From Alphaproteobacteria bacterium (GTDB lineage: Bacteria; Pseudomonadota; Alphaproteobacteria; JAEUKQ01): 64,000 bases of DNA. The DNA lies in contig JAEUKQ010000003.1 in NCBI GenBank assembly GCA_016794225.1, positions 10,215 to 74,214 of the forward strand, given 5' to 3'. Made by a program: the position numbers and the translations under genes. Of this stretch, positions 528 to 58,998 are shown in pieces. Position 1 is the stretch's first letter; every line of letters begins with the position of its first letter. The notes below the pieces were generated by a model. That model did not search any database and had not been told where the DNA came from. It saw only the letters and a list, made by a program, of their open reading frames with translations.

Positions 528-785
528 TAATAGATTACTTAATAAATATGTTGATGTAGTAGGTTTATAAAAATACGTTATAAAAAATTATAAATTTTTA
601 TCCACAGAATTAATCACAGAACATTTTACGTCAGATTGTTTTTATAAAATGACGAAACAAAAATATGCACAATATTTGAAAAAACATTAAAAAAATACTA
701 ACCAGTTCACAAATATGTGGATAGAATGTTTATAGTTTGCAGGTTTTTAAAGTAAACAACTTTATTCACAAATAATCCACAAGAT
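528..785. other. Candidate chromosomal replication origin (Cori/oriC): AT-rich hemE–maf intergenic region with clustered DnaA boxes
   Basis: DnaA-box matches: perfect TTATCCACA at 598-606; one-mismatch boxes TGTGGATAG (revcomp CTATCCACA) at 716-724, TTATTCACA at 762-770 and TAATCCACA at 773-781; two-mismatch TTAATCACA at 610-618. A long A/T run at 560-600 could serve as the DNA-unwinding element. Sits immediately beside hemE, the conserved origin-flanking gene in alphaproteobacteria. Confidence 0.6.
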
Positions 786-1376
786 ATGTCAATAATTCTT
801 GCTTCTGCCAGTTATATTCGTGCCACACTTCTTCGAAATGCAGGGCTTAATATAAAAAGCCACCCAGCATCAATTGATGAAGAAGCTATTGCGCATGAAC
901 GTAAGAAAATGGGCACACCACCTGAAGAAATAGCACTTTGGCTTGCGCGCGCAAAAGCTGAAAAAGTCAGCAGATTGTTTAAAAACCAGCATGTTATCGG
1001 GGTTGATCAGGTGCTTGTTCAGGGTAAAGAATTTCTTGAAAAACCGAAAAACCATGCAGAAGCTTTAATACAACTAGGTAAATTATCTGCAAAACAGCAC
1101 ACATTGTTTACAAGTGCTGTAATATTTAAGGACGGTAATGAATTGTGGTCTGTAACAACCACAGCCATGATGAGCATGCATGAACTTCAACAAGAAGAAA
1201 TAGTTGAATATCTAAAACGCAATCCAACAGTCATTCATAATTTGGGAAGTTATAATTTTGAGGGGGAGGGGATAAGGCTTTTTAAAAAAGTCGTGGGCGA
1301 TTACTTTTCGATATTAGGAATTCCAGTACTTGAGATTATAAATTTTTTTAGGCGGGAAGGTCAGTTGTTTATATGA
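786..1376 (+). CDS. maf: Maf-like nucleotide pyrophosphatase / septum formation protein
   Basis: 196 aa beginning MSIILASASYIR..., typical Maf N-terminus. Its last 4 nt overlap coaE. Confidence 0.85.
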   Translation: MSIILASASYIRATLLRNAGLNIKSHPASIDEEAIAHERKKMGTPPEEIALWLARAKAEKVSRLFKNQHVIGVDQVLVQGKEFLEKPKNHAEALIQLGKLSAKQHTLFTSAVIFKDGNELWSVTTTAMMSMHELQQEEIVEYLKRNPTVIHNLGSYNFEGEGIRLFKKVVGDYFSILGIPVLEIINFFRREGQLFI

Positions 1377-1993
1377 AGATATTTGGCCTTACTGGCAATA
1401 TTGCTAGTGGTAAAACAACGATTGCTAAAATACTGCGTCAGAAAAAGATCCCCATTTTTGAAGCAGATCGCCAAGTCAACCTTTTAAAAAAACAGCGAGA
1501 TATTTTTTACAATTATATGGTTAACAAAGGTTTTTCAGGAAATCGTGGTTTTTTGCCTTCCACACCCGAGTTGCGGGAAATAATATTGAAAAACCCAGAT
1601 ATTTTAATAGAACTGGAAAAATTACTTCACCCACTTGTTCATCAGCAAGAAAAGCAATTTATTGCGACTGCGAGGCGATATCGCAAGAAGCTTGTATTTT
1701 TTGATATACCGCTTCTTTTTGAGGTAGAAGACTACAGAAATTTCTTTGATGCAATATTTCTCGTGCATGTATGTTCATTTGTTCAACGTCAGCGTGCCTT
1801 AAAAAGAAAAAATATGACAGAACGTTGGGTTGATTTTATCAGTCAAAGACAGTTAGCCGTAGCCTTTAAAATAAAACAAAGCCATGTTGCGATTAATACG
1901 GGATCAAGTATGAGGCATAGCCGCGAAAGATTCTTGCAAACATTGAAGTCAATAAATAATCAACCCAAAACAAGATTAAAATATCCTAGATAG
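1373..1993 (+). CDS. coaE: Dephospho-CoA kinase
   Basis: 206 aa with a GLTGNIASGKTT P-loop at the N-terminus followed by an ...EADRQV motif. Conserved position upstream of dnaQ. Confidence 0.8.
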   Translation: MKIFGLTGNIASGKTTIAKILRQKKIPIFEADRQVNLLKKQRDIFYNYMVNKGFSGNRGFLPSTPELREIILKNPDILIELEKLLHPLVHQQEKQFIATARRYRKKLVFFDIPLLFEVEDYRNFFDAIFLVHVCSFVQRQRALKRKNMTERWVDFISQRQLAVAFKIKQSHVAINTGSSMRHSRERFLQTLKSINNQPKTRLKYPR

Positions 1994-2000
1994 GACCATC

Positions 2001-2681
2001 ATGCGTGAAATAATTCTTGATACGGAAACCACAGGGCTTGATCCCGATAAAGGAGACCGGGTTATCGAAATTGCCTGCGTTGAATTGATCAATTATTTAC
2101 CAACAGGTCAATATATTCAGTATTATCTGAATCCAGAAAGAACAGTTCCCTCAGATGCAGTAGCCGTTCATGGATTAACAACTGAATTTTTATTAGACAA
2201 GCCAAAATTTATTCAAATAGCCGATCGTTTTCTTGATTTTATTGGCAATGCCCCGCTGGTTATTCACAATGCTGAGTTTGACATACGCTTTATTAATGCC
2301 GAACTTACGAGAATCCGTAAAGACACCATCCAATTAACCCGAAGTATTGATACCGTATTAATGGCACGCCAGAAATTTCCTGGCGCACCCGCGAATCTTG
2401 ACGCACTATGTCGTCGATTTAATATCGATATAAGTCGCCGCGATAAACACGGGGCACTGCTTGATTGCCAATTGCTATCACAAGTATATTTAGAGCTGCG
2501 TGGCGGCCGTCAAAAAGGACTTTCCCTTGACGTATCTGAAAGTTCAATCAAAACACTTGTCAGTAACAGCCCTAAAAAACCATTCCAACGATCATTGGTC
2601 ATCCAACCATCTGACCAAGAGCTAAAAGACCATCAAGAAATGCTTAGTAAGCTTCAAAAGCCCTTGTGGGGCCAAAGCTGA
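2001..2681 (+). CDS. dnaQ: DNA polymerase III epsilon subunit (3'-5' proofreading exonuclease)
   Basis: 226 aa. Exo I motif ILDTETTGL; HNAEFDIRF and HGALLD motifs also present. Confidence 0.9.
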   Translation: MREIILDTETTGLDPDKGDRVIEIACVELINYLPTGQYIQYYLNPERTVPSDAVAVHGLTTEFLLDKPKFIQIADRFLDFIGNAPLVIHNAEFDIRFINAELTRIRKDTIQLTRSIDTVLMARQKFPGAPANLDALCRRFNIDISRRDKHGALLDCQLLSQVYLELRGGRQKGLSLDVSESSIKTLVSNSPKKPFQRSLVIQPSDQELKDHQEMLSKLQKPLWGQS

Positions 2682-2686
2682 TGGTT

Positions 2687-3244
2687 TTATTGTACCGAAT
2701 TACTTTCAGCCGGCTGTGCCGCTGCCAACTGGCGTTGCCTTTCACGATACAAAGAAACAAAATCGATTGGCTGTAGCTGTGGTAGCGGAATAACGCCATC
2801 ACGGGATAAATTGGCAACAATTTGCCGCACAAAGGGGAAAAGTAATCTTGGAGCTTCAATCATCAAAAGTGGCTCAATTGCTTCAACAGGAACTGATTGT
2901 AAATGAAAAAGCCCAGCATACTCAACTTCTGCCAAACACTTGAATTTTTCATGCATCGTCGCTTCAAGCAGAATTTTTAAAACAACTTCAAAATCAGTTG
3001 TGTTGAACTGTGCGATTCGGATATCGATTTTAACACTGCCCTTAGGGGTCTGATGACCTAACTGAATAATCTCGACAGAACTCGGATTTTCATAAGATAA
3101 ATCTTTTAAATATTGGGCAACCAAACTGAAACCGAAAGATTTATCCTTATCGGGTGCTGGTGTTTTTTGTGCCGAGTCGCTGGTATTCTCTTTATTGGCA
3201 GAACTATTGGCTGAATTCTTGCCCGAACGATTTTCAGTCATCAT
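2687..3244 (-). CDS. secB: Protein-export chaperone SecB
   Basis: SecB core ...FGFSLVAQYLKDLSYENP... is present. The 213-aa ORF in the track (ending at 3328) likely overextends; start taken at the internal MM TENRSG at 3244/3241. Confidence 0.8.
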   Translation of the reverse strand: MMTENRSGKNSANSSANKENTSDSAQKTPAPDKDKSFGFSLVAQYLKDLSYENPSSVEIIQLGHQTPKGSVKIDIRIAQFNTTDFEVVLKILLEATMHEKFKCLAEVEYAGLFHLQSVPVEAIEPLLMIEAPRLLFPFVRQIVANLSRDGVIPLPQLQPIDFVSLYRERQRQLAAAQPAESNSVQ

Positions 3245-3480
3245 CAATATCCTTAGAAAAATTTCAATAATTTCCAAAAAACTTATGCCCGAAGATAGGT
3301 TTTTTAGCAAGTGTTTCCTTGTTGCCAAAATATCTTTTGCTGTTGATTAAGCCTAATATTGGCTTTTGAATTTGTTTTTAGCAGAATTTTAGCAAAATTA
3401 TTTTGACATAGATTTTTACTGGATTTGTTGTTAGTTTTTCCTATATCTATTTTATCATTCAACAAATATTCTGGTATAAA

Positions 3481-4161
3481 ATGACAGACTCAGATTGGCT
3501 TCAGATTATTTTTTTCGCAGCTTTGGCCGTTTTCTTTCTTATTCGGTTACGTCAGGTTCTTGGGCAAAGAACAGGTAACGAGCAAAAATATAAACAGCAG
3601 AAAATCCTTCAAATGCCACTGCCTGGGCAAAAGCATCAGCCAGAAAAAGTTACCGAGAGAAGTAATATCGAAAACGAACAAGAAAAGTCTTTCCTCTTAT
3701 CGCCTGAATTAGTCAATAATGTACAAGAACTGCAGCGACAATACCCAGCTTTTCAACCTTCAACATTCGTCAAAGGTGCAAAGATAGCTTTTGAAACTAT
3801 ACTCGAAGCGTATGCCGCAGGGAACACAAATACCCTAAAAACATTAGTTGATCAGGATATGTTTGATTTGTTTAACCAAGCGATTATAACGCGCCAGCAA
3901 AAAGGACAGCATCAAGAAACAATGATTGTTGCTATTAAAGAAGCAAAGATTCAGTCTATTCAAAGTGACGCTACAAGGGCGGTAATATCGGTTATTATTG
4001 TGTCTGAGCAGATCAACGCGCTCCGTAACCAACAAGGGCAGGTTATTGAAGGGGATGCCACCGCAGTAATGACCGTTCGTGATTTGTGGACATTTGCAAA
4101 AGACTTGCGGCGGACTGACCCTAATTGGTTGTTAATTGCTACTGAAAATGCAGAAGCTTAA
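3481..4161 (+). CDS. Tim44-like domain membrane protein
   Basis: 226 aa with an N-terminal transmembrane helix (WLQIIFFAALAVFFLIRL) and a Tim44-like C-terminal domain. Conserved secB-divergent neighbour in alphaproteobacteria. Confidence 0.7.
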   Translation: MTDSDWLQIIFFAALAVFFLIRLRQVLGQRTGNEQKYKQQKILQMPLPGQKHQPEKVTERSNIENEQEKSFLLSPELVNNVQELQRQYPAFQPSTFVKGAKIAFETILEAYAAGNTNTLKTLVDQDMFDLFNQAIITRQQKGQHQETMIVAIKEAKIQSIQSDATRAVISVIIVSEQINALRNQQGQVIEGDATAVMTVRDLWTFAKDLRRTDPNWLLIATENAEA

Positions 4162-36748: not shown

Positions 36749-37651
36749 ATGAAAGTTTTATATCAGCGTTTTATGCAGGCTGTGTTTAGCGGTGCGCTGC
36801 TTCTGGCTGCTTCAACAGCCGTTGCTCAGCAATATCGCCCATGGAATAATAGTACCAGTGATTTTCAAACGATGTTTCGCGAATTAAAAGACATGATTCG
36901 CGAAGCGGATCGCGCCAACGCAGCAGATCCAATTTTTTTGGATGACCTCAATGACTTTGTCCAGCGTTATGAACGGCTAGTTTTGTCTGGTAACAACCCA
37001 TCACCTACGACAGGTTGGTCAAGAGTCGTTTTATCAGACACTTTCCGGGACGGCAATTTTACACAAAATCCTGCTTGGGTTGTTCGTTCAGGTGCCTGGC
37101 GTGTTGACAATGGCGGCAGTAACGTTGGACTTCGTTCTTCGGTTTATTCCGCTTATTCTGGTAATAGTCAAGATGTTGCTCAGGCGTTGTTAGGGGCATT
37201 ATTTCAGCAGCCAGGTCAACAAAATTTTGCTGCTCAGGTTGCCCAGATTGCTGTTGCAGCAAAAATACCTAATAGTTTTCAGCTAAAGGTTGAATTTAAG
37301 TCCAGGGCTGCTGGTGGACGGCTGGATTTTATCGTCTATAATGTTCAAAGTGCTGGTTCATATGTTATATCTTATACACCCGGCTATGATAATGGATTAC
37401 AGCTATTGCGCATTACGAATCGGGGAACAAATTTATTGGCAGGGTCCAATAACAATATTGTTCTTGAAGATGATAAGTATCATACGCTTGAACTAAACAG
37501 AGATAGTCGGGGGATGATGAACCTGCTGATCGATGGGCGGGTTGTTGCACGTGCCGAGGATAACAGCTTAAATCGTGGATTTGACAATCTAACGATCGCC
37601 AATGGCGGCGGAACATACTGGATTAAATCTGTGACAATTAACGGTCAGTAA
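36749..37651 (+). CDS. Hypothetical secreted protein (cysteine-free, beta-rich C-terminal domain)
   Basis: 300 aa with a signal peptide (AASTAVAQQ). No cysteines. N/G/S-rich predicted beta domain. Monocistronic, with its own putative promoter (TTGTGT-N18-TATAAT at about 36692-36721) and a strong terminator. Confidence 0.65.
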   Translation: MKVLYQRFMQAVFSGALLLAASTAVAQQYRPWNNSTSDFQTMFRELKDMIREADRANAADPIFLDDLNDFVQRYERLVLSGNNPSPTTGWSRVVLSDTFRDGNFTQNPAWVVRSGAWRVDNGGSNVGLRSSVYSAYSGNSQDVAQALLGALFQQPGQQNFAAQVAQIAVAAKIPNSFQLKVEFKSRAAGGRLDFIVYNVQSAGSYVISYTPGYDNGLQLLRITNRGTNLLAGSNNNIVLEDDKYHTLELNRDSRGMMNLLIDGRVVARAEDNSLNRGFDNLTIANGGGTYWIKSVTINGQ

Positions 37652-37818: not shown

Positions 37819-40467
37819 ATGCATAAAAACGATCAGGAATTACCTGCAACCCCAGCTCTATCGCAATATTTGCAGATAAAAAAACAGCAGCAAAATACTT
37901 TGCTGTTTTATCGCTTGGGCGATTTTTACGAAATGTTCTTTGAAGATGCCAAAAAGGCATCGGTCATTTTAGGTATAGCCCTTACCAAACGTGGCCAATT
38001 TCAGGGTCAAGACGTGCCAATGTGTGGAGTGCCGGCACATGCAGCTGATAGTTATATTGCCAAGCTGATTCAGCATGGGGAACGCGTTGCCATCTGTGAG
38101 CAAGTCGAGAACGCCGAGCAGGCCAAAAAGCGTGGTAGCAAAAATATTATCGAGCGGCGTATCGTTCGTATCATAACACCTGGAACAATTACGGAAGACA
38201 GCTTGCTAGATAACAAGCGTAATAATTATTTGGCAGCACTTATTGATAATAACGATTTATTGGCAATCGCTTGGATTGATTTGTCAACAGCGGACTTTTC
38301 GACAATTATAATTGGGAAAAATGACCTTATATCTTGGCTTGAACGAATTAACCCAAAAGAATTATTAATTCCTGATAGGCGTGACACAATTTTACCTTCA
38401 CAAATACCGGAAAATTGGCAGAAAACTTTGGTTTACCGCCCCCAAGACCGATTTGAACAAAGATCAGCCAGGGACCGGTTGCTTAAGGCATATAATACCC
38501 AATCTCTTGACGGTTTTGGGGCATTTACCGATTTAGAAATTTGTGCCGCCGGTGCCTTAATCGAGTATATTGATTTAACACAACAAGGCCAATTTCCTGT
38601 TCTAAAGCCCTTAAAAAAAGTTTTAGATCATCAGGTAATGGCAATAGATGCATTTACCTGGCGTAGTCTAGAAATCGATAAAACGCAATCAAATCGATTT
38701 GAAGGTAGTTTGCTTCAGGTTATCGACCGTAACTGTACTGCGGCCGGTGCAAGATGTCTTGCAACATGGTTAACCTACCCCCTAACAGATGTTGACCAAA
38801 TTAACCAGCGCCAATTGATTGTAGAATTTTTTGTAGCACACAAACAAATACGGGAGCATGCACGGCGGATTTTGTCAAAAATGGCAGATTTACAACGTGC
38901 TTTGTCGCGGTTGATGGTTGGTCGCGGCACACCGCGCGATTTAGGTGCAATACAAGCATCTTTGCAGCATGTTATGGTTATTCAGCAAATTTTGAATGCA
39001 ATAAGCCTACCCCAATCTTTACAACAGCTTGTTGGATCAATCAAAGATCATCAGGGATTAATTCAAACTCTCTCGAAGGCATTGAGCGCGGTTTTACCAA
39101 TAGACATAAAAGAAGGTGGTTTTATCGCGAGTGGTTATCATCCTGAACTTGACGAATGGCGCAAATTGCGTGACGGGGCAAAACAGCAGATTGTTGGATT
39201 AGAAAACCGCTACCGTGATTTAAGCGGAGTTAACAGTCTAAAAATTAAGCACAATAACATTCTTGGTTATTATATTGAAACCACAGCACTGCAGGCCCAA
39301 AAATTGTTTGAAGATTCAGCAAAAACCTTTATACACCGGCAGACTATGGCTGGGTCTGTTCGTTTTATCACATCTGAACTTAATGATTTGCAGCAAAAAA
39401 TTTTTCAATCAGCTGACAAAGTTATTGCCCTTGAAATAGAACTATTTCAAGAACTCGTTCAGCAAATAAAGAACCAGGCCGATTCTATCCAAATAACAGC
39501 TGATATTATTGCCCAATTAGATGTCTTGATATCGCTTGCCAGTTTGGCTGTTGAACAATCTTATACCAGGCCTGTTGTTGATAATAGCCTTTATTTTGAA
39601 GTCACGGAGGGGCGGCACCCCGTTGTCGAGTTTATGTTACTAAAAAATAATCAAACTTTTATTGCTAATGATTGCCATGTTAATCCGGGGCAGCAACTGT
39701 GGCTAATAACTGGTCCAAATATGGCAGGAAAATCTACCTTTTTACGTCAGAATGCATTAATCGCTATCTTGGCGCAGATTGGCTCATTTGTACCTGCAAA
39801 GAATGCTCGGATAGGTATTATCGACAAATTATTTAGTCGGGTTGGGGCAGCAGATGATTTAGCCCGCGGACAATCAACTTTTATGGTTGAAATGATCGAA
39901 ACGGCTGCAATTCTAAACCAGGCTACAGCACGTTCTTTTGTAATATTTGATGAAATAGGCAGGGGTACATCGACCTTTGATGGTCTTTCAATTGCTTGGG
40001 CGGTTTTAGAACATATGCATTCTAATGTCAAAAGCCGTTGTTTATTTGCAACCCATTATCGCGAATTGGCTAATCTTGAACAAAAACTTGCGTCGTTGCG
40101 GTGTTATTGCTTTAAACTAAAGGAATGGCGTGATAACATTGTTTTTTTACATCAACTTGTGCTTGGAGTTGCTGATCGTTCATATGGTATTGACGTTGCA
40201 CGATTGGCGGGCGTACCCAAAACGGTAACTGACCGCGCACGAAATATTCTTGTGCAATTAGAAAAAAACAATGAAAACCCCAAAAATGCTTATGTTTTGC
40301 AAGAGAAATTGCCTTTATTCCAGGAAAAAGAGAAAACACCAGCTGTCTACATTCAAACCGCACAGCCAACTATTATTGATGCGCTCATGGGAATGGATTT
40401 AAACAATCTGTCACCAAAACAGGCCTTAGACAAACTTTACGAGCTACAGAAAAAAGCGCTAGGGTAA
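37819..40467 (+). CDS. mutS: DNA mismatch repair protein MutS
   Basis: 882 aa. N-terminal mismatch-binding domain (TPALSQYLQIKKQ...), Walker A GPNMAGKST, and a C-terminal beta-clamp binding motif (QEKLPLFQ). Confidence 0.97.
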   Translation: MHKNDQELPATPALSQYLQIKKQQQNTLLFYRLGDFYEMFFEDAKKASVILGIALTKRGQFQGQDVPMCGVPAHAADSYIAKLIQHGERVAICEQVENAEQAKKRGSKNIIERRIVRIITPGTITEDSLLDNKRNNYLAALIDNNDLLAIAWIDLSTADFSTIIIGKNDLISWLERINPKELLIPDRRDTILPSQIPENWQKTLVYRPQDRFEQRSARDRLLKAYNTQSLDGFGAFTDLEICAAGALIEYIDLTQQGQFPVLKPLKKVLDHQVMAIDAFTWRSLEIDKTQSNRFEGSLLQVIDRNCTAAGARCLATWLTYPLTDVDQINQRQLIVEFFVAHKQIREHARRILSKMADLQRALSRLMVGRGTPRDLGAIQASLQHVMVIQQILNAISLPQSLQQLVGSIKDHQGLIQTLSKALSAVLPIDIKEGGFIASGYHPELDEWRKLRDGAKQQIVGLENRYRDLSGVNSLKIKHNNILGYYIETTALQAQKLFEDSAKTFIHRQTMAGSVRFITSELNDLQQKIFQSADKVIALEIELFQELVQQIKNQADSIQITADIIAQLDVLISLASLAVEQSYTRPVVDNSLYFEVTEGRHPVVEFMLLKNNQTFIANDCHVNPGQQLWLITGPNMAGKSTFLRQNALIAILAQIGSFVPAKNARIGIIDKLFSRVGAADDLARGQSTFMVEMIETAAILNQATARSFVIFDEIGRGTSTFDGLSIAWAVLEHMHSNVKSRCLFATHYRELANLEQKLASLRCYCFKLKEWRDNIVFLHQLVLGVADRSYGIDVARLAGVPKTVTDRARNILVQLEKNNENPKNAYVLQEKLPLFQEKEKTPAVYIQTAQPTIIDALMGMDLNNLSPKQALDKLYELQKKALG

Positions 40468-40510: not shown

Positions 40511-41005
40511 CTAATTAGGTTGCGGTACAGAAAGCTGACGTTTGTTAACGGTGCCATCTGGGTTATTGCTGCCAAAGACAAGCTCAATTGTTAATCTCGA
40601 CCACAGCTTGGAATAATCAACTTTATTAGGTATTACTATCTCAAGCACGCTTTCAACCATGCTTTTTTGACCCGAGCGTTCAGTTAATGGAACATTTACC
40701 CCAACCCCACCACCAAATTGAACATTTCCACCGGTAAATGCCCCTACACCAACTCCAATACTCGGTACAAAATGGCGATCGCCGGTATAAACCAGTTGTT
40801 GATGTTGTATCGTGGTTGATGATTGAAGAATGGATGACCCATTTTTAAGCTTAGCCTCTAAAACTGGCTGTTCATCTACCACCCGAATTAACAACGATTT
40901 TTGATCAGAGCTAAGGCTAATATTTACGGAAGGGCTGAGCGTATATTGCGATGATGATGTGCATGCACTAAGAAAAATTAAAAGAAAAAATGGTAAAAAT
41001 CTCAT
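40511..41005 (-). CDS. Hypothetical lipoprotein (Gly-rich central motif)
   Basis: 164 aa, lipobox LIFLSAC. Central GVGVGAFTGGNVQFGGGVGVNV segment. Confidence 0.55.
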   Translation of the reverse strand: MRFLPFFLLIFLSACTSSSQYTLSPSVNISLSSDQKSLLIRVVDEQPVLEAKLKNGSSILQSSTTIQHQQLVYTGDRHFVPSIGVGVGAFTGGNVQFGGGVGVNVPLTERSGQKSMVESVLEIVIPNKVDYSKLWSRLTIELVFGSNNPDGTVNKRQLSVPQPN

Positions 41006-44759: not shown

Positions 44760-45508
44760 AAAAATCAGGTAAATTTTTTGTCAGAATAGTTGTTATGTGG
44801 TTGTTGACACTGTCGGTTGCCGGAGTAAGAGCTGATACCCTGATTGCTGACCTATCGAACCGGTTTATTGCAATTACCACTGGCTTTAGTGGAACAGATT
44901 TACTGGTATTTGGAGCGATTGATGTTCCTGGTGATATTGTGGTGATTGTCCAAGGTCCACCTACAGATGTTGTGGTGCGCCGCAAGGAAAGAATTGCCGG
45001 TTTTTGGGTTAACCGTGCAAATGTCACTTTTAAAAATATTCCCAGTTTTTATGCAATAGCCGCCAGTAAGCCGATAGAAGATATTTTAGCACCCGAAATT
45101 CAGCAACAGTTAAATATAGGGCTAGAATATTTGCCAATGAAAACAGATGTCACACTAACACCATCTGAGACAAAAGAATTTCGTGAAGCGCTGATTGTTA
45201 ACAAAAGGCTACAACAACTTTATTATAGCAACATTCTACGTGTTAATTTTATGGGGCGCGAACTTTTTAGAACCAATATATCCTTTCCTTCGAATGTGCC
45301 AACGGGGGACTATTTATTAGATATTATGTTGGTGCGCGATAAAAACGTAGTTAGCGCCCAACAAACACCTTTAAGTGTTACAAAAACAGGTTTTGGCGCA
45401 GAAATTTATGATTTTGCGCACCAGAATGCTTTGCTATATGGTCTAGCAGCAATTGTTTTGGGGTTGTTTGGTGGTTGGGCTGGCTACGTATTTTTCCGTC
45501 GGAGGTAG
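44756..45508 (+). CDS. TIGR02186-family conserved alphaproteobacterial membrane-anchored protein
   Basis: 250 aa. N-terminal signal peptide plus a C-terminal transmembrane helix. Its start overlaps the TSUP stop by 4 nt (translational coupling). Confidence 0.6.
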   Translation: MKKSGKFFVRIVVMWLLTLSVAGVRADTLIADLSNRFIAITTGFSGTDLLVFGAIDVPGDIVVIVQGPPTDVVVRRKERIAGFWVNRANVTFKNIPSFYAIAASKPIEDILAPEIQQQLNIGLEYLPMKTDVTLTPSETKEFREALIVNKRLQQLYYSNILRVNFMGRELFRTNISFPSNVPTGDYLLDIMLVRDKNVVSAQQTPLSVTKTGFGAEIYDFAHQNALLYGLAAIVLGLFGGWAGYVFFRRR

Positions 45509-45512
45509 GTAC

Positions 45513-46001
45513 ATGAGTGCTATTGCAGCTGTAGATGATCATCGTCAGGTCTTTTTAGTTGTTCTTGAATCAAGTATCGATATGAAACTGCCACTTTACT
45601 ATGCTTGCCGTATGGCAAAAAGGGTACAAGGCCGTGTTTCATTACTTTATGTTATCGAGCCTAATGATTTAACCGAATGGCAATCGGTTGGTAATTTAAT
45701 GTACGAGCAGCAACGCCAAGAAGCTGAAAGAGTTCTTCAAAAAGCAGCAACTTTTGTCCACGGTAATTCAGGAATTTTTCCAGCTCTTTTTATTAGAGAG
45801 GGCGGTAAAATTGATCAAACAGTCCAACTTGCTGGGGAGGATGAATCCATCAGTGCGCTGGTTATTGTTGTTGATGTGCAGGGCAAGGCATCTGGTACAA
45901 TTTCCGCACAATGGAACGCCAAGCTATCGGCACGGCTTAAGGTGCCCTTAATTATCGTTCCTAATAACCTAACTGAAGAAGATATTCAGCGCGTCACCTA
46001 G
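45513..46001 (+). CDS. Universal stress protein (UspA)-like
   Basis: Start chosen at the ATG at 45513, after a GGAGGTAGG ribosome-binding site. Usp-like alpha/beta fold (LVVLESSID...LLYV...ALVIVVD...PLIIVP). Confidence 0.65.
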   Translation: MSAIAAVDDHRQVFLVVLESSIDMKLPLYYACRMAKRVQGRVSLLYVIEPNDLTEWQSVGNLMYEQQRQEAERVLQKAATFVHGNSGIFPALFIREGGKIDQTVQLAGEDESISALVIVVDVQGKASGTISAQWNAKLSARLKVPLIIVPNNLTEEDIQRVT

Positions 46002-53687: not shown

Positions 53688-54593
53688 ATGTCAGACCAAT
53701 CATTTTCATCACATTCGGCAACATCTTCTTCAAACCAAGATCCTGGAAAACGAGGGTTTTGGCAGCGTTTTTTGGGGTTTTGGCGCAAAAAAAATGGTAG
53801 CGAAGAACTACGTGAAGTCATCGAGGATTTGATTGAAGAACATGATGCAGATCCCGATTCTTCGGCTTTTGGCGCTGATGAGGGTAGTTTGTTACGTAAC
53901 ATATTAAAATTACGTGATTTAACGGCCTATGATGTTATGATACCTCGTGCCGATATTGTTGCTGTTTCAAATAACTTAAGCCTACAGGAATTATTAAAAG
54001 TTTTTAGCCGTGAAGGTCATTCGCGTCTGCCTCTTTACCGCGATCACTTAGATGATGTCATTGGTTTTTTGCATATTCGTGATATATTAGCTTGCACTAT
54101 TCATGAACGTGAATATCAGCTTGACGCTTTAAAGCGTGATATTTTGTTTGTTGCCCCAACCATGTCAGTATTGGATTTGTTGCTTGAAATGCGCCTTAGC
54201 CGCATTCATATGGCTGTTGTTATTGACGAATTTGGTGGTACCGATGGGCTTATAACTATCGAGGATGTAATTGAATCGATCGTTGGTGATATTGAGGACG
54301 AGCATGATGTTCCAGAAGCTTCTCATCTTGTACATCGTTCAGATGGTTCATGGCTTGCGGATGCCCGCCTATCAATCAACGATCTTGAGCAGCAGGTTGG
54401 TAAGGTTTTAACCGAGGAAGAAGAGAAAAAAAATATTGATACTATTGGCGGACTAATTTTCTCGATAATTGGCCGCATTCCAAGTCGTGGTGAATTAATA
54501 GCACATCCTTCTGGCTTACAATTTGAAGTTATTGAAGCCGACCCGCGGCGAATTAAAAAATTGCGTATCGTACGTTCAATACCAAATTACTAA
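53688..54593 (+). CDS. corC: CorC/HlyC-family Mg/Co efflux protein (tandem CBS + CorC_HlyC domains)
   Basis: 301 aa. CBS pair plus the C-terminal transporter-associated domain. Conserved ybeZ-ybeY-corC-lnt order. Confidence 0.88.
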   Translation: MSDQSFSSHSATSSSNQDPGKRGFWQRFLGFWRKKNGSEELREVIEDLIEEHDADPDSSAFGADEGSLLRNILKLRDLTAYDVMIPRADIVAVSNNLSLQELLKVFSREGHSRLPLYRDHLDDVIGFLHIRDILACTIHEREYQLDALKRDILFVAPTMSVLDLLLEMRLSRIHMAVVIDEFGGTDGLITIEDVIESIVGDIEDEHDVPEASHLVHRSDGSWLADARLSINDLEQQVGKVLTEEEEKKNIDTIGGLIFSIIGRIPSRGELIAHPSGLQFEVIEADPRRIKKLRIVRSIPNY

Positions 54594-58398: not shown

Positions 58399-58998
58399 CT
58401 ATGTAGGTTGGAATAATTTTTGCATCTCTTTTAGGTTTTGCATATTAATAGATTTATCTGTTCCCAAATGGTTAACTTTTAGTGACCAATTCTGATTATA
58501 AAACCTAATACTAACAGCTGTGAAAAATAATCCACTTTCGCCAAATACAATATGCGCATCCGATAAAGAAGATGCCCACTGGTTTTTAATTGCTGGGTTG
58601 TTAAGAGAGCCAAATTGGGTTAATAAAACCCGCTGGTTGGTAACAGAAAGAATAAAGTGGGCCGTGCTATTAATCATCCATAAACCCAAAAGCGAGCAAA
58701 TAGAGGTAAGAAAACCGATAATTGCTGTAAAGTTTCGACTATTCTGTACGGAAATAGCCACAAGGACAATAAATAGTATTAAAAATAAGTTAACTATCGG
58801 TGGAACAGGTTGTTTGGTTGTTAATAGGACATATTTTATCTTTTCTTCTGGCTGAAGCACTACATCAGACAAAACCTTTTTTGCAAGAGCTGGCCATGGT
58901 AAAATCATCAAAAATACTCCATTATAGTTAAAATAGCCCTTATAAGCTTCAGAAGAAATAAAATACTTATAAGTGTCGACTAAGGTACATGTTAACAT
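58399..58998 (-). CDS. Hypothetical membrane protein (two transmembrane helices, orphan)
   Basis: 199 aa with 2 hydrophobic helices (IVNLFLILFIVLVAISV, AIIGFLTSICSLLGLWMI). Lone minus-strand gene in an AT-rich pocket between trmB and rimP. Start ambiguous (internal M at residue 31). Confidence 0.5.
   Translation of the reverse strand: MLTCTLVDTYKYFISSEAYKGYFNYNGVFLMILPWPALAKKVLSDVVLQPEEKIKYVLLTTKQPVPPIVNLFLILFIVLVAISVQNSRNFTAIIGFLTSICSLLGLWMINSTAHFILSVTNQRVLLTQFGSLNNPAIKNQWASSLSDAHIVFGESGLFFTAVSIRFYNQNWSLKVNHLGTDKSINMQNLKEMQKLFQPT

Follow-up and report, generated by a model that had tools for sequence, protein, structure and literature searches.

The 258-bp spacer between hemE and maf, located at positions 528–785 of the window (the whole 64-kb stretch of DNA that was analysed), is most probably the core of a chromosome replication origin of the Cori type linked to hemE, which is typical of Alphaproteobacteria. 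The original prediction placed a chromosomal origin between these two genes, and it is supported by the gene neighbourhood, the uniqueness of the DnaA box cluster, the AT content and duplex stability, the strand bias and GC skew, the conservation in close relatives and the architecture shared with distant relatives. As judged from these features of the sequence, the predicted origin is very probably an ordinary and compact example of an origin type described before in Caulobacter, Rickettsia and Brucella. The location of the spacer and its elements match the expectation of a specialist, and no concept is changed. The locus provides an origin anchor for an uncultured, sparsely sampled lineage, which is useful for the orientation of MAG contigs, coverage-based growth-rate estimates and annotation, and it enlarges the group of hemE-linked origins by a compact one of 258 bp that lacks CtrA sites.

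Gene neighbourhood, strand bias and composition

The window is nearly identical to L002, a 258-kb metagenome contig in ENA, with about 20 mismatches over the first 8.6 kb. The genes of the left flank were read from this contig, which extends the window leftwards by 9.2 kb, and L002 1–9215 was joined to the window to give a 73-kb composite. To the left of the spacer, gidB, gidA, trmE, two small ORFs (one of them DUF6489), rho, hemJ (UPF0093), hemH and hemE are all encoded on the minus strand. The left boundary gene is hemE (uroporphyrinogen decarboxylase), whose 5' part occupies positions 1–527 of the window on the minus strand with its start codon at 525–527; the reverse strand of this segment gives a stop-free translation corresponding to the HemE N-terminus, MIKKEF...WLMRQAGRYLPEYRELR, and hemE in L002 matches the Pfam family PF01208 (URO-D). 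The right boundary gene is maf (nucleotide pyrophosphatase, PF02545), which lies on the plus strand at 786–1376. The translation, the maf start at 786 and a GC content of 0.221 thus bear out the description of the 5' end of hemE as facing a 258-bp AT-rich spacer.

The right boundary gene is followed by coaE (1373–1993, plus strand), dnaQ (RNase_T; 2001–2681, plus strand), secB (2687–3244, minus strand) and a tim44-like gene (3481–4161, plus strand), assigned by their Pfam families in L002 and L003, and then by mltA, smr, hslUV, HIT and comM, assigned by Pfam in L002. The downstream order maf–coaE–dnaQ–secB–tim44-like had been predicted and is confirmed by these assignments. The origin-side block coaE–dnaQ–secB–tim44 (1373–4161) recurs in L011, L014 and L016. 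The mechanically called secB ORF extends over 2687–3328 on the minus strand and encodes 213 aa from a TTG start, while the gene in matching contigs encodes 184–185 aa; the true start is probably internal, which would leave a secB–tim44 intergenic region longer than 152 bp.

The rest of the window carries gshB, rsmI, hemW, rdgB, rph, hrcA-grpE-dnaK-dnaJ, typA and a pho/pst cluster, together with the further housekeeping genes mutS, murJ, trpS, miaB-phoH-corC-lnt, metK and rimP-nusA-infB (Pfam). Because these core housekeeping genes lie in the window, the replicon is the main chromosome and not a plasmid, and a plasmid or chromid origin is ruled out on the same ground. The Pfam scans found no dnaA gene within the 64-kb window. 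Four ORFs of 164–300 aa had no Pfam match at the thresholds used, namely those at 36749–37651 (plus), 40511–41005 (minus), 45453–46001 (plus) and 58399–58998 (minus). The corC gene (CBS domain, COG1253) is at 53688–54593, 53 kb from the predicted origin, in a gene run matching the miaB-type (UPF0004/radical SAM), PhoH, CBS/CorC and Lnt families; COG1253 is an origin boundary gene in Wolbachia (PMC1914354).

At the far end of the left flank, an AT-rich intergenic region of 536 bp lies left of gidB (L002 562–1097, GC 0.28) and contains one DnaA box. It adjoins a 157-aa orphan ORF (L002 88–561) with only three database relatives, and L002 88–1097 as a whole corresponds to 9.1–8.1 kb left of the window start. 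The parAB genes, which are next to gidB in L011, are absent left of gidB here, and in L014 a ParA-like gene is found about 1 kb beyond gidB.

In the 73-kb composite, the gene orientation and the GC skew both change at the spacer. In the left 9.7 kb, nine of nine genes are on the minus strand and the GC skew is −0.05; across the right 63 kb, the plus strand carries 39 genes and the minus strand 23, 68% of the coding bases are on the plus strand, and the skew is +0.065. The cumulative skew climbs steadily across the window. In the composite its minimum is spread over a broad trough reaching from about −0.2 to +12 kb; the lowest bin falls at +8.3 kb, owing to the minus-strand location of hslUV and comM. 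The local skew is consistent with an origin at 528–785 without pinpointing it.

The GC content of the spacer, compared with 0.41 for the window, is the minimum among all 258-bp stretches of the window, and none of the 12 other intergenic regions in the 73-kb composite with a length of 150 bp or above is as low. Among all 40-bp duplexes of the 64 kb, the one at 563–602 has the lowest stability, with −37.6 kcal/mol (mean −51.6, sd 3.9), and it abuts the perfect DnaA box described below. The divergent promoters of hemE and maf must also sit within 528–785. A sigma-70 promoter scan of 400–900 with an E. coli-type consensus gave no matches against 3.0 expected. The Rfam scan of the whole 64-kb window returned no family at the gathering score, and no tRNA, rRNA or riboswitch, which indicates that no RNA element explains the spacer.

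DnaA boxes and their conservation

The pattern search located a perfect DnaA box, TTATCCACA, at 598–606 on the plus strand, which is the upstream member of a tandem pair; the second member, TTAATCACA at 610–618 on the plus strand, has two mismatches and lies 3 bp past the perfect box (12 bp start to start). In L001 the latter box is the one-mismatch TTAACCACA. A one-mismatch box, CTATCCACA, is found on the minus strand at 716–724 (plus strand TGTGGATAG), and a second, maf-proximal tandem pair on the plus strand consists of the one-mismatch boxes TTATTCACA at 762–770 and TAATCCACA at 773–781, the latter being 2 bp past the former (11 bp start to start) and 4 bp ahead of the maf ATG. These five boxes had all been predicted, and each was recovered at its coordinates. 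In addition, a weak two-mismatch box, ATATGCACA, is present at 663–671 within the central A/T-rich stretch 619–715, and a two-mismatch box on the minus strand, TTATTGACA at 787–795, overlaps the first maf codons.

To evaluate the significance of the cluster, the spacer itself was shuffled 5000 times with its dinucleotides preserved. Against 0.116 expected, the spacer has four boxes with at most one mismatch, and none of the 5000 shuffles reaches four; with at most two mismatches, six are observed against 1.42 expected (P ~0.001). The whole 64-kb window shows no box excess in the pattern search, where 23 are observed against 19.4 expected. Since the window is unenriched and the spacer enriched, the box enrichment is local. 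Of the 13 intergenic regions in the 73-kb composite that reach a length of 150 bp, 12 had no box or a single one, and the spacer alone had several. Three one-mismatch boxes also occur within 250 bp at 39576–39826. They lie inside the mutS coding sequence (37819–40467), and this group was judged to be a chance occurrence and rejected as a second real cluster.

The same spacer is found in L001, L010 and L012, in which Maf is 82–87% identical to that of the window; L001 is a MAG called 'uncultured Rhodospirillaceae bacterium'. In the alignment of the window with these three sequences, 24 spacer columns are variable and none of them falls within the four boxes of at most one mismatch (598–606, 716–724, 762–770 and 773–781), which are invariant (P ~0.027). 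The spacer as a whole is 91.5% identical to that of L001, compared with 82–89% at the third codon positions of the flanking genes and 92–95% in two other intergenic regions. Because the spacer value is close to these, bulk spacer conservation is uninformative at the distance of L001. Beyond these relatives, the identity of the homologues found in the Maf searches falls from 83–87% to 44%, and that of HemE homologues from 93–96% to 60–61% and then to about 50%; the lineage is sparsely sampled.

Four more distant loci were compared with the window. In L014 (HemE 60%), the same synteny encloses a 302-bp spacer with four boxes of at most one mismatch, and the skew changes from −0.009 to +0.072. 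In L016 (HemE 51%), the gene order is the canonical Cori arrangement, with hemE, a spacer of 405 bp and duf299-aroE-coaE-dnaQ-secB-tim44; its spacer holds ten boxes of at most one mismatch, and the skew changes from −0.109 to +0.180. The sign of the skew thus switches at the spacer in both L014 and L016, more clearly than in the window. In L013 (Maf 38%), hemE, a 521-bp spacer and duf299-maf are found, and the spacer has four boxes of at most one mismatch. In L011, a member of the Rhodobacterales, the order is parBA-gidBA-trmE-rho-hemJ, a 422-bp spacer and maf-aroE-coaE-dnaQ; the two spacer boxes (at most one mismatch) are the only ones in 20.6 kb, and the skew changes from about 0 to +0.020. 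The COG1806 gene (duf299) and aroE, which are found at this position in L013 and L016, are absent from the window locus; duf299 precedes maf in L013 and adjoins the spacer in L016.

When the loci are drawn with hemE at the left, the boxes of the window are arranged as + + / − / + +, those of L014 as + / − − / +, and those of L016 as + + / five − / + + +. The tandem boxes have gaps of 2–3 bp and are 11–12 bp apart from start to start. CTATCCACA recurs in L014 and L016 as one of the middle boxes and there faces the same way with respect to hemE; the window box at 762–770 aligns with the perfect box of L014; and TAATCCACA is the middle one of the three tandem plus-strand boxes beside the right-hand gene of L016. 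This conserved orientation pattern, in which an inverted group is flanked by tandem plus-strand boxes, could help to define a minimal alphaproteobacterial origin.

Comparison with known origins and alternative explanations

The locus was examined against the criteria (a–g) given by Ioannidis et al. 2007 (PMC1914354) for an alphaproteobacterial hemE-linked origin. As to boundary genes homologous to those of relatives (a; hemE and/or COG1806), hemE is on the left and maf on the right. The length of 258 bp falls within the intergenic range of 200–1000 bp (b). Of the DnaA and IHF sites (c), DnaA sites are present, two of them fitting TTATNCACA, and the IHF consensus is absent from the spacer. The spacer has more sites than the other intergenic regions within 73 kb (d), an AT content above that of the genome (e; GC 0.221 against 0.41 for the window) and a shift in GC skew from −0.05 to +0.065 in the 73-kb composite, with a broad trough (g). 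The similarity to close relatives (f) is 91.5% to L001, yet it reaches 92–95% in two other intergenic regions.

The features of a Caulobacter-type Cori, namely CtrA sites overlapping DnaA or IHF sites and GANTC, were not found in the spacer. An exact CtrA site, TTAA-N7-TTAA, is absent from it, and the one-mismatch CtrA-like sites at 676–690 and 687–701 break the published rule TTWW-N7-TTWW (PMC1914354). The second of these reads TTAA-N7-CTAA, so that the CtrA-like pair noted at 687–702 is indeed as weak as it had been called. The spacer has no match to the IHF consensus WATCAN5WTR or WATCAANNNNTTR, the best site being at 541–553 with one mismatch; neither GANTC nor GATC occurs in 480–830, and a search for the Caulobacter G-box gave nothing useful. 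Since the CtrA and GANTC features were tested and not found, the locus is classified as a predicted hemE-linked alphaproteobacterial origin, and filing it as a CtrA-controlled Cori is not warranted. Precedents for a hemE-linked origin without CtrA motifs are provided by S. meliloti (PMC4433202) and several Rickettsiales (PMC1914354). The hemE-duf299 spacer of L013 carries a perfect TTAA-N7-TTAA at 877–891 and, at 1131–1148, a TTAACAT half-site immediately next to a perfect DnaA box; the window clade has neither this CtrA-type site nor the pairing of half-site and box.

The hemE gene flanks the mapped Cori of Caulobacter (PMC6393856) as well as the predicted origins of Rickettsia and Wolbachia (PMC1914354) and of Brucella chromosome I (PMC4104442). 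In Caulobacter crescentus, Cori lies between hemE and CCNA_00001/duf299. The spacer resembles it in adjoining the 5' end of hemE, in being AT-rich, in having several (here predicted) DnaA boxes of mixed affinity, and in the neighbourhood gidAB-trmE-rho...hemE / maf-coaE-dnaQ (PMC6393856). Caulobacter Cori, which overlaps duf299, carries CtrA and GANTC sites, five of each, together with one IHF site, and its boxes are all moderate or weak. In contrast, the spacer here has a perfect TTATCCACA, no rule-conforming CtrA site, no IHF consensus, no GANTC and no duf299, and it is only 258 bp long. The absence of the three kinds of site that go with the DnaA boxes in Caulobacter counts against the origin interpretation. 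Sibley et al. 2006 are said to have found that the S. meliloti oriC adjoins hemE.

The predicted origins of the Rickettsiales (hemE/COG1806 in Rickettsia and COG1253/hemE in Wolbachia; PMC1914354) have the hemE boundary in common. The spacer shares with them a length of 200–1000 bp, two to four boxes of the TTATNCACA type, a raised AT content, few or no CtrA sites, and binding sites that are conserved more than the remaining spacer. Unlike the spacer, each of these Rickettsiales origins contains one or more IHF consensus sites, their lengths are about 385–620 bp, and the right boundary gene here, maf, differs from theirs. The likeness to the origin of Brucella abortus chromosome I concerns the adjacency to hemE (PMC4104442).

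The location of the spacer between two divergent genes allows another explanation of the boxes. The spacer might be only a divergent promoter region from which DnaA regulates hemE or maf, or a titrating cluster like datA or DARS, with the origin located elsewhere, for example beside dnaA. Both promoters must be contained in it, the box at 773–781 ends 4 bp from the maf ATG, so that its binding would affect expression, dnaA is not in the window and the skew trough is broad. However, a regulated promoter or titration site leaves the switch of gene orientation and skew at the spacer, which recurs in L014 and L016, to be accounted for, as well as the position of the least stable duplex of the 64 kb against the perfect box. 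Moreover, an origin beside hemE has been mapped in Caulobacter and is predicted throughout the class, and the multi-box, two-orientation architecture is kept at 51–60% HemE identity. This explanation is therefore considered unlikely.

A relic or secondary origin-like site, in which the boxes of an ancestral hemE-linked origin persisted after the origin was abandoned through rearrangement or replacement, is more improbable still. Rearrangements of origin boundary genes are documented in Wolbachia, ambiguous regions are known in Neorickettsia (PMC1914354), and the absence of duf299 (COG1806) and aroE indicates that the present locus was remodelled. A dead origin, though, would lose both its boxes and the switch, while here the four boxes are invariant as 24 other spacer positions vary, and skew and gene orientation still switch at the spacer. 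The least probable explanation, which has hardly any weight, is that the boxes are A/T-rich 9-mers clustered by chance in an intergenic region that is itself rich in A/T. The lack of a window-wide box excess (23 against 19.4) and the chance trio of one-mismatch boxes inside mutS are in keeping with it, but none of the 5000 composition-matched shuffles reaches four boxes, and the boxes are conserved and recur as clusters in distant homologous spacers, for which reason it was rejected.

Within the preferred explanation of the spacer as an origin core, a more far-reaching version can be put forward only tentatively and is rather doubtful. The locus would then be a stripped-down hemE-linked origin that needs only its DnaA boxes and dispenses with CtrA, IHF and methylation sites, and the orientation pattern would represent the minimal functional Cori, with possible central unwinding between convergent boxes and a possible coupling of maf to initiation through the maf-proximal pair.

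Predicted unwinding and minor elements of the spacer

If the spacer acts as an origin core, DnaA would first bind the perfect box at 598–606 and the three one-mismatch boxes, and cooperative binding would then occupy the weaker neighbours, where the tandem boxes are 11–12 bp apart, about one helical turn. The DnaA-ATP oligomer would melt an adjacent A/T-rich stretch, either about 540–597 or 619–715, and the helicase would be loaded there for bidirectional replication. These three steps of binding, DnaA-dependent melting and helicase loading follow the general DnaA paradigm (PMC6393856), which we infer to apply to this spacer. Because the spacer must hold both promoters, transcription and initiation would probably interact, as at Caulobacter Cori.

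The first candidate unwinding element is the hemE-proximal A/T-rich stretch at 540–597. It takes in most of the least stable duplex, two AT-rich tandem 13-mers, TTTATAAAAATAC at 564–576 and GTTATAAAAAATT at 577–589, and a GTAGTAG motif at 556–562; a hemE-proximal AT-rich stretch is found likewise in L013, L014 and L016. The second candidate is the central A/T-rich stretch at 619–715, which is bracketed by boxes pointing inward and enclosed by an inverted repeat (596–611 / 711–726); the 30-bp stability within it is −30 to −35 kcal/mol. In E. coli oriC, the box nearest the DUE has the sequence TGTGGATAA on the strand running from the DUE to that box. Trios of the BUS scaffold are on the 5' tail beside the boxes (PMC8287927). 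According to these two polarities, the pair at 598/610 and the inverted box at 716 point into 619–715. The convergent interval that matches this stretch is only 24–33 bp in L014 and L016, which weakens the second candidate. Unwinding at about 540–597 is favoured, at somewhat better than an even chance, because the duplex of lowest stability in 64 kb falls in this stretch, which also has AT-rich hemE-proximal counterparts in distant relatives, whereas the central stretch keeps a smaller, still considerable chance. The A/T-rich segment 560–600 that had originally been suggested as the unwinding element therefore stands as regards duplex stability (563–602), while the box orientation gives a second candidate beside it.

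The tandem pair 598–606/610–618, with the better box upstream, a 3-bp gap and an A/T-rich stretch beyond, resembles the BUS described by Pelliciari et al. 2021 (PMC8287927). The rule applied was a DnaA box with at most two mismatches, a spacer of 0–16 bp and then at least three NAN trios on the 5'-tail strand. Arrangements of this form occur at 610–618, 716–724 and 773–781, each with a run of four trios. The best runs are four NTN located 14–16 bp from the box; such runs of at least four are reached by 27% of random anchors in the spacer. The DnaA-trio test in the spacer was thus not significant, and the trio runs are at chance level.

The GTAGTAG motif lies 29–35 nt upstream of the hemE start codon, and in L014 (9970–9964) it lies 31–37 nt upstream. 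It is kept between the window clade and L014 despite a HemE identity of only 60%, and L016 carries TTAGTATATAGG where the window and L014 have GTAGTAG. The motif could be a promoter or leader element of hemE, or it could represent DnaA-trio-like repeats. A degenerate direct repeat of about 30 bp is also present at 539–569 and 706–734, reading TTAATAAATATGTTGAT.TAGTAGGTTTATA in the first copy and TTCACAAATATGTGGAT.AGAATGTTTATA in the second. The copy at 706–734 includes the box at 716–724, and the copy at 539–569 includes the three-mismatch box-like TGTTGATGT at 549–557; the repeat may go back to an early duplication of a box module within the spacer.
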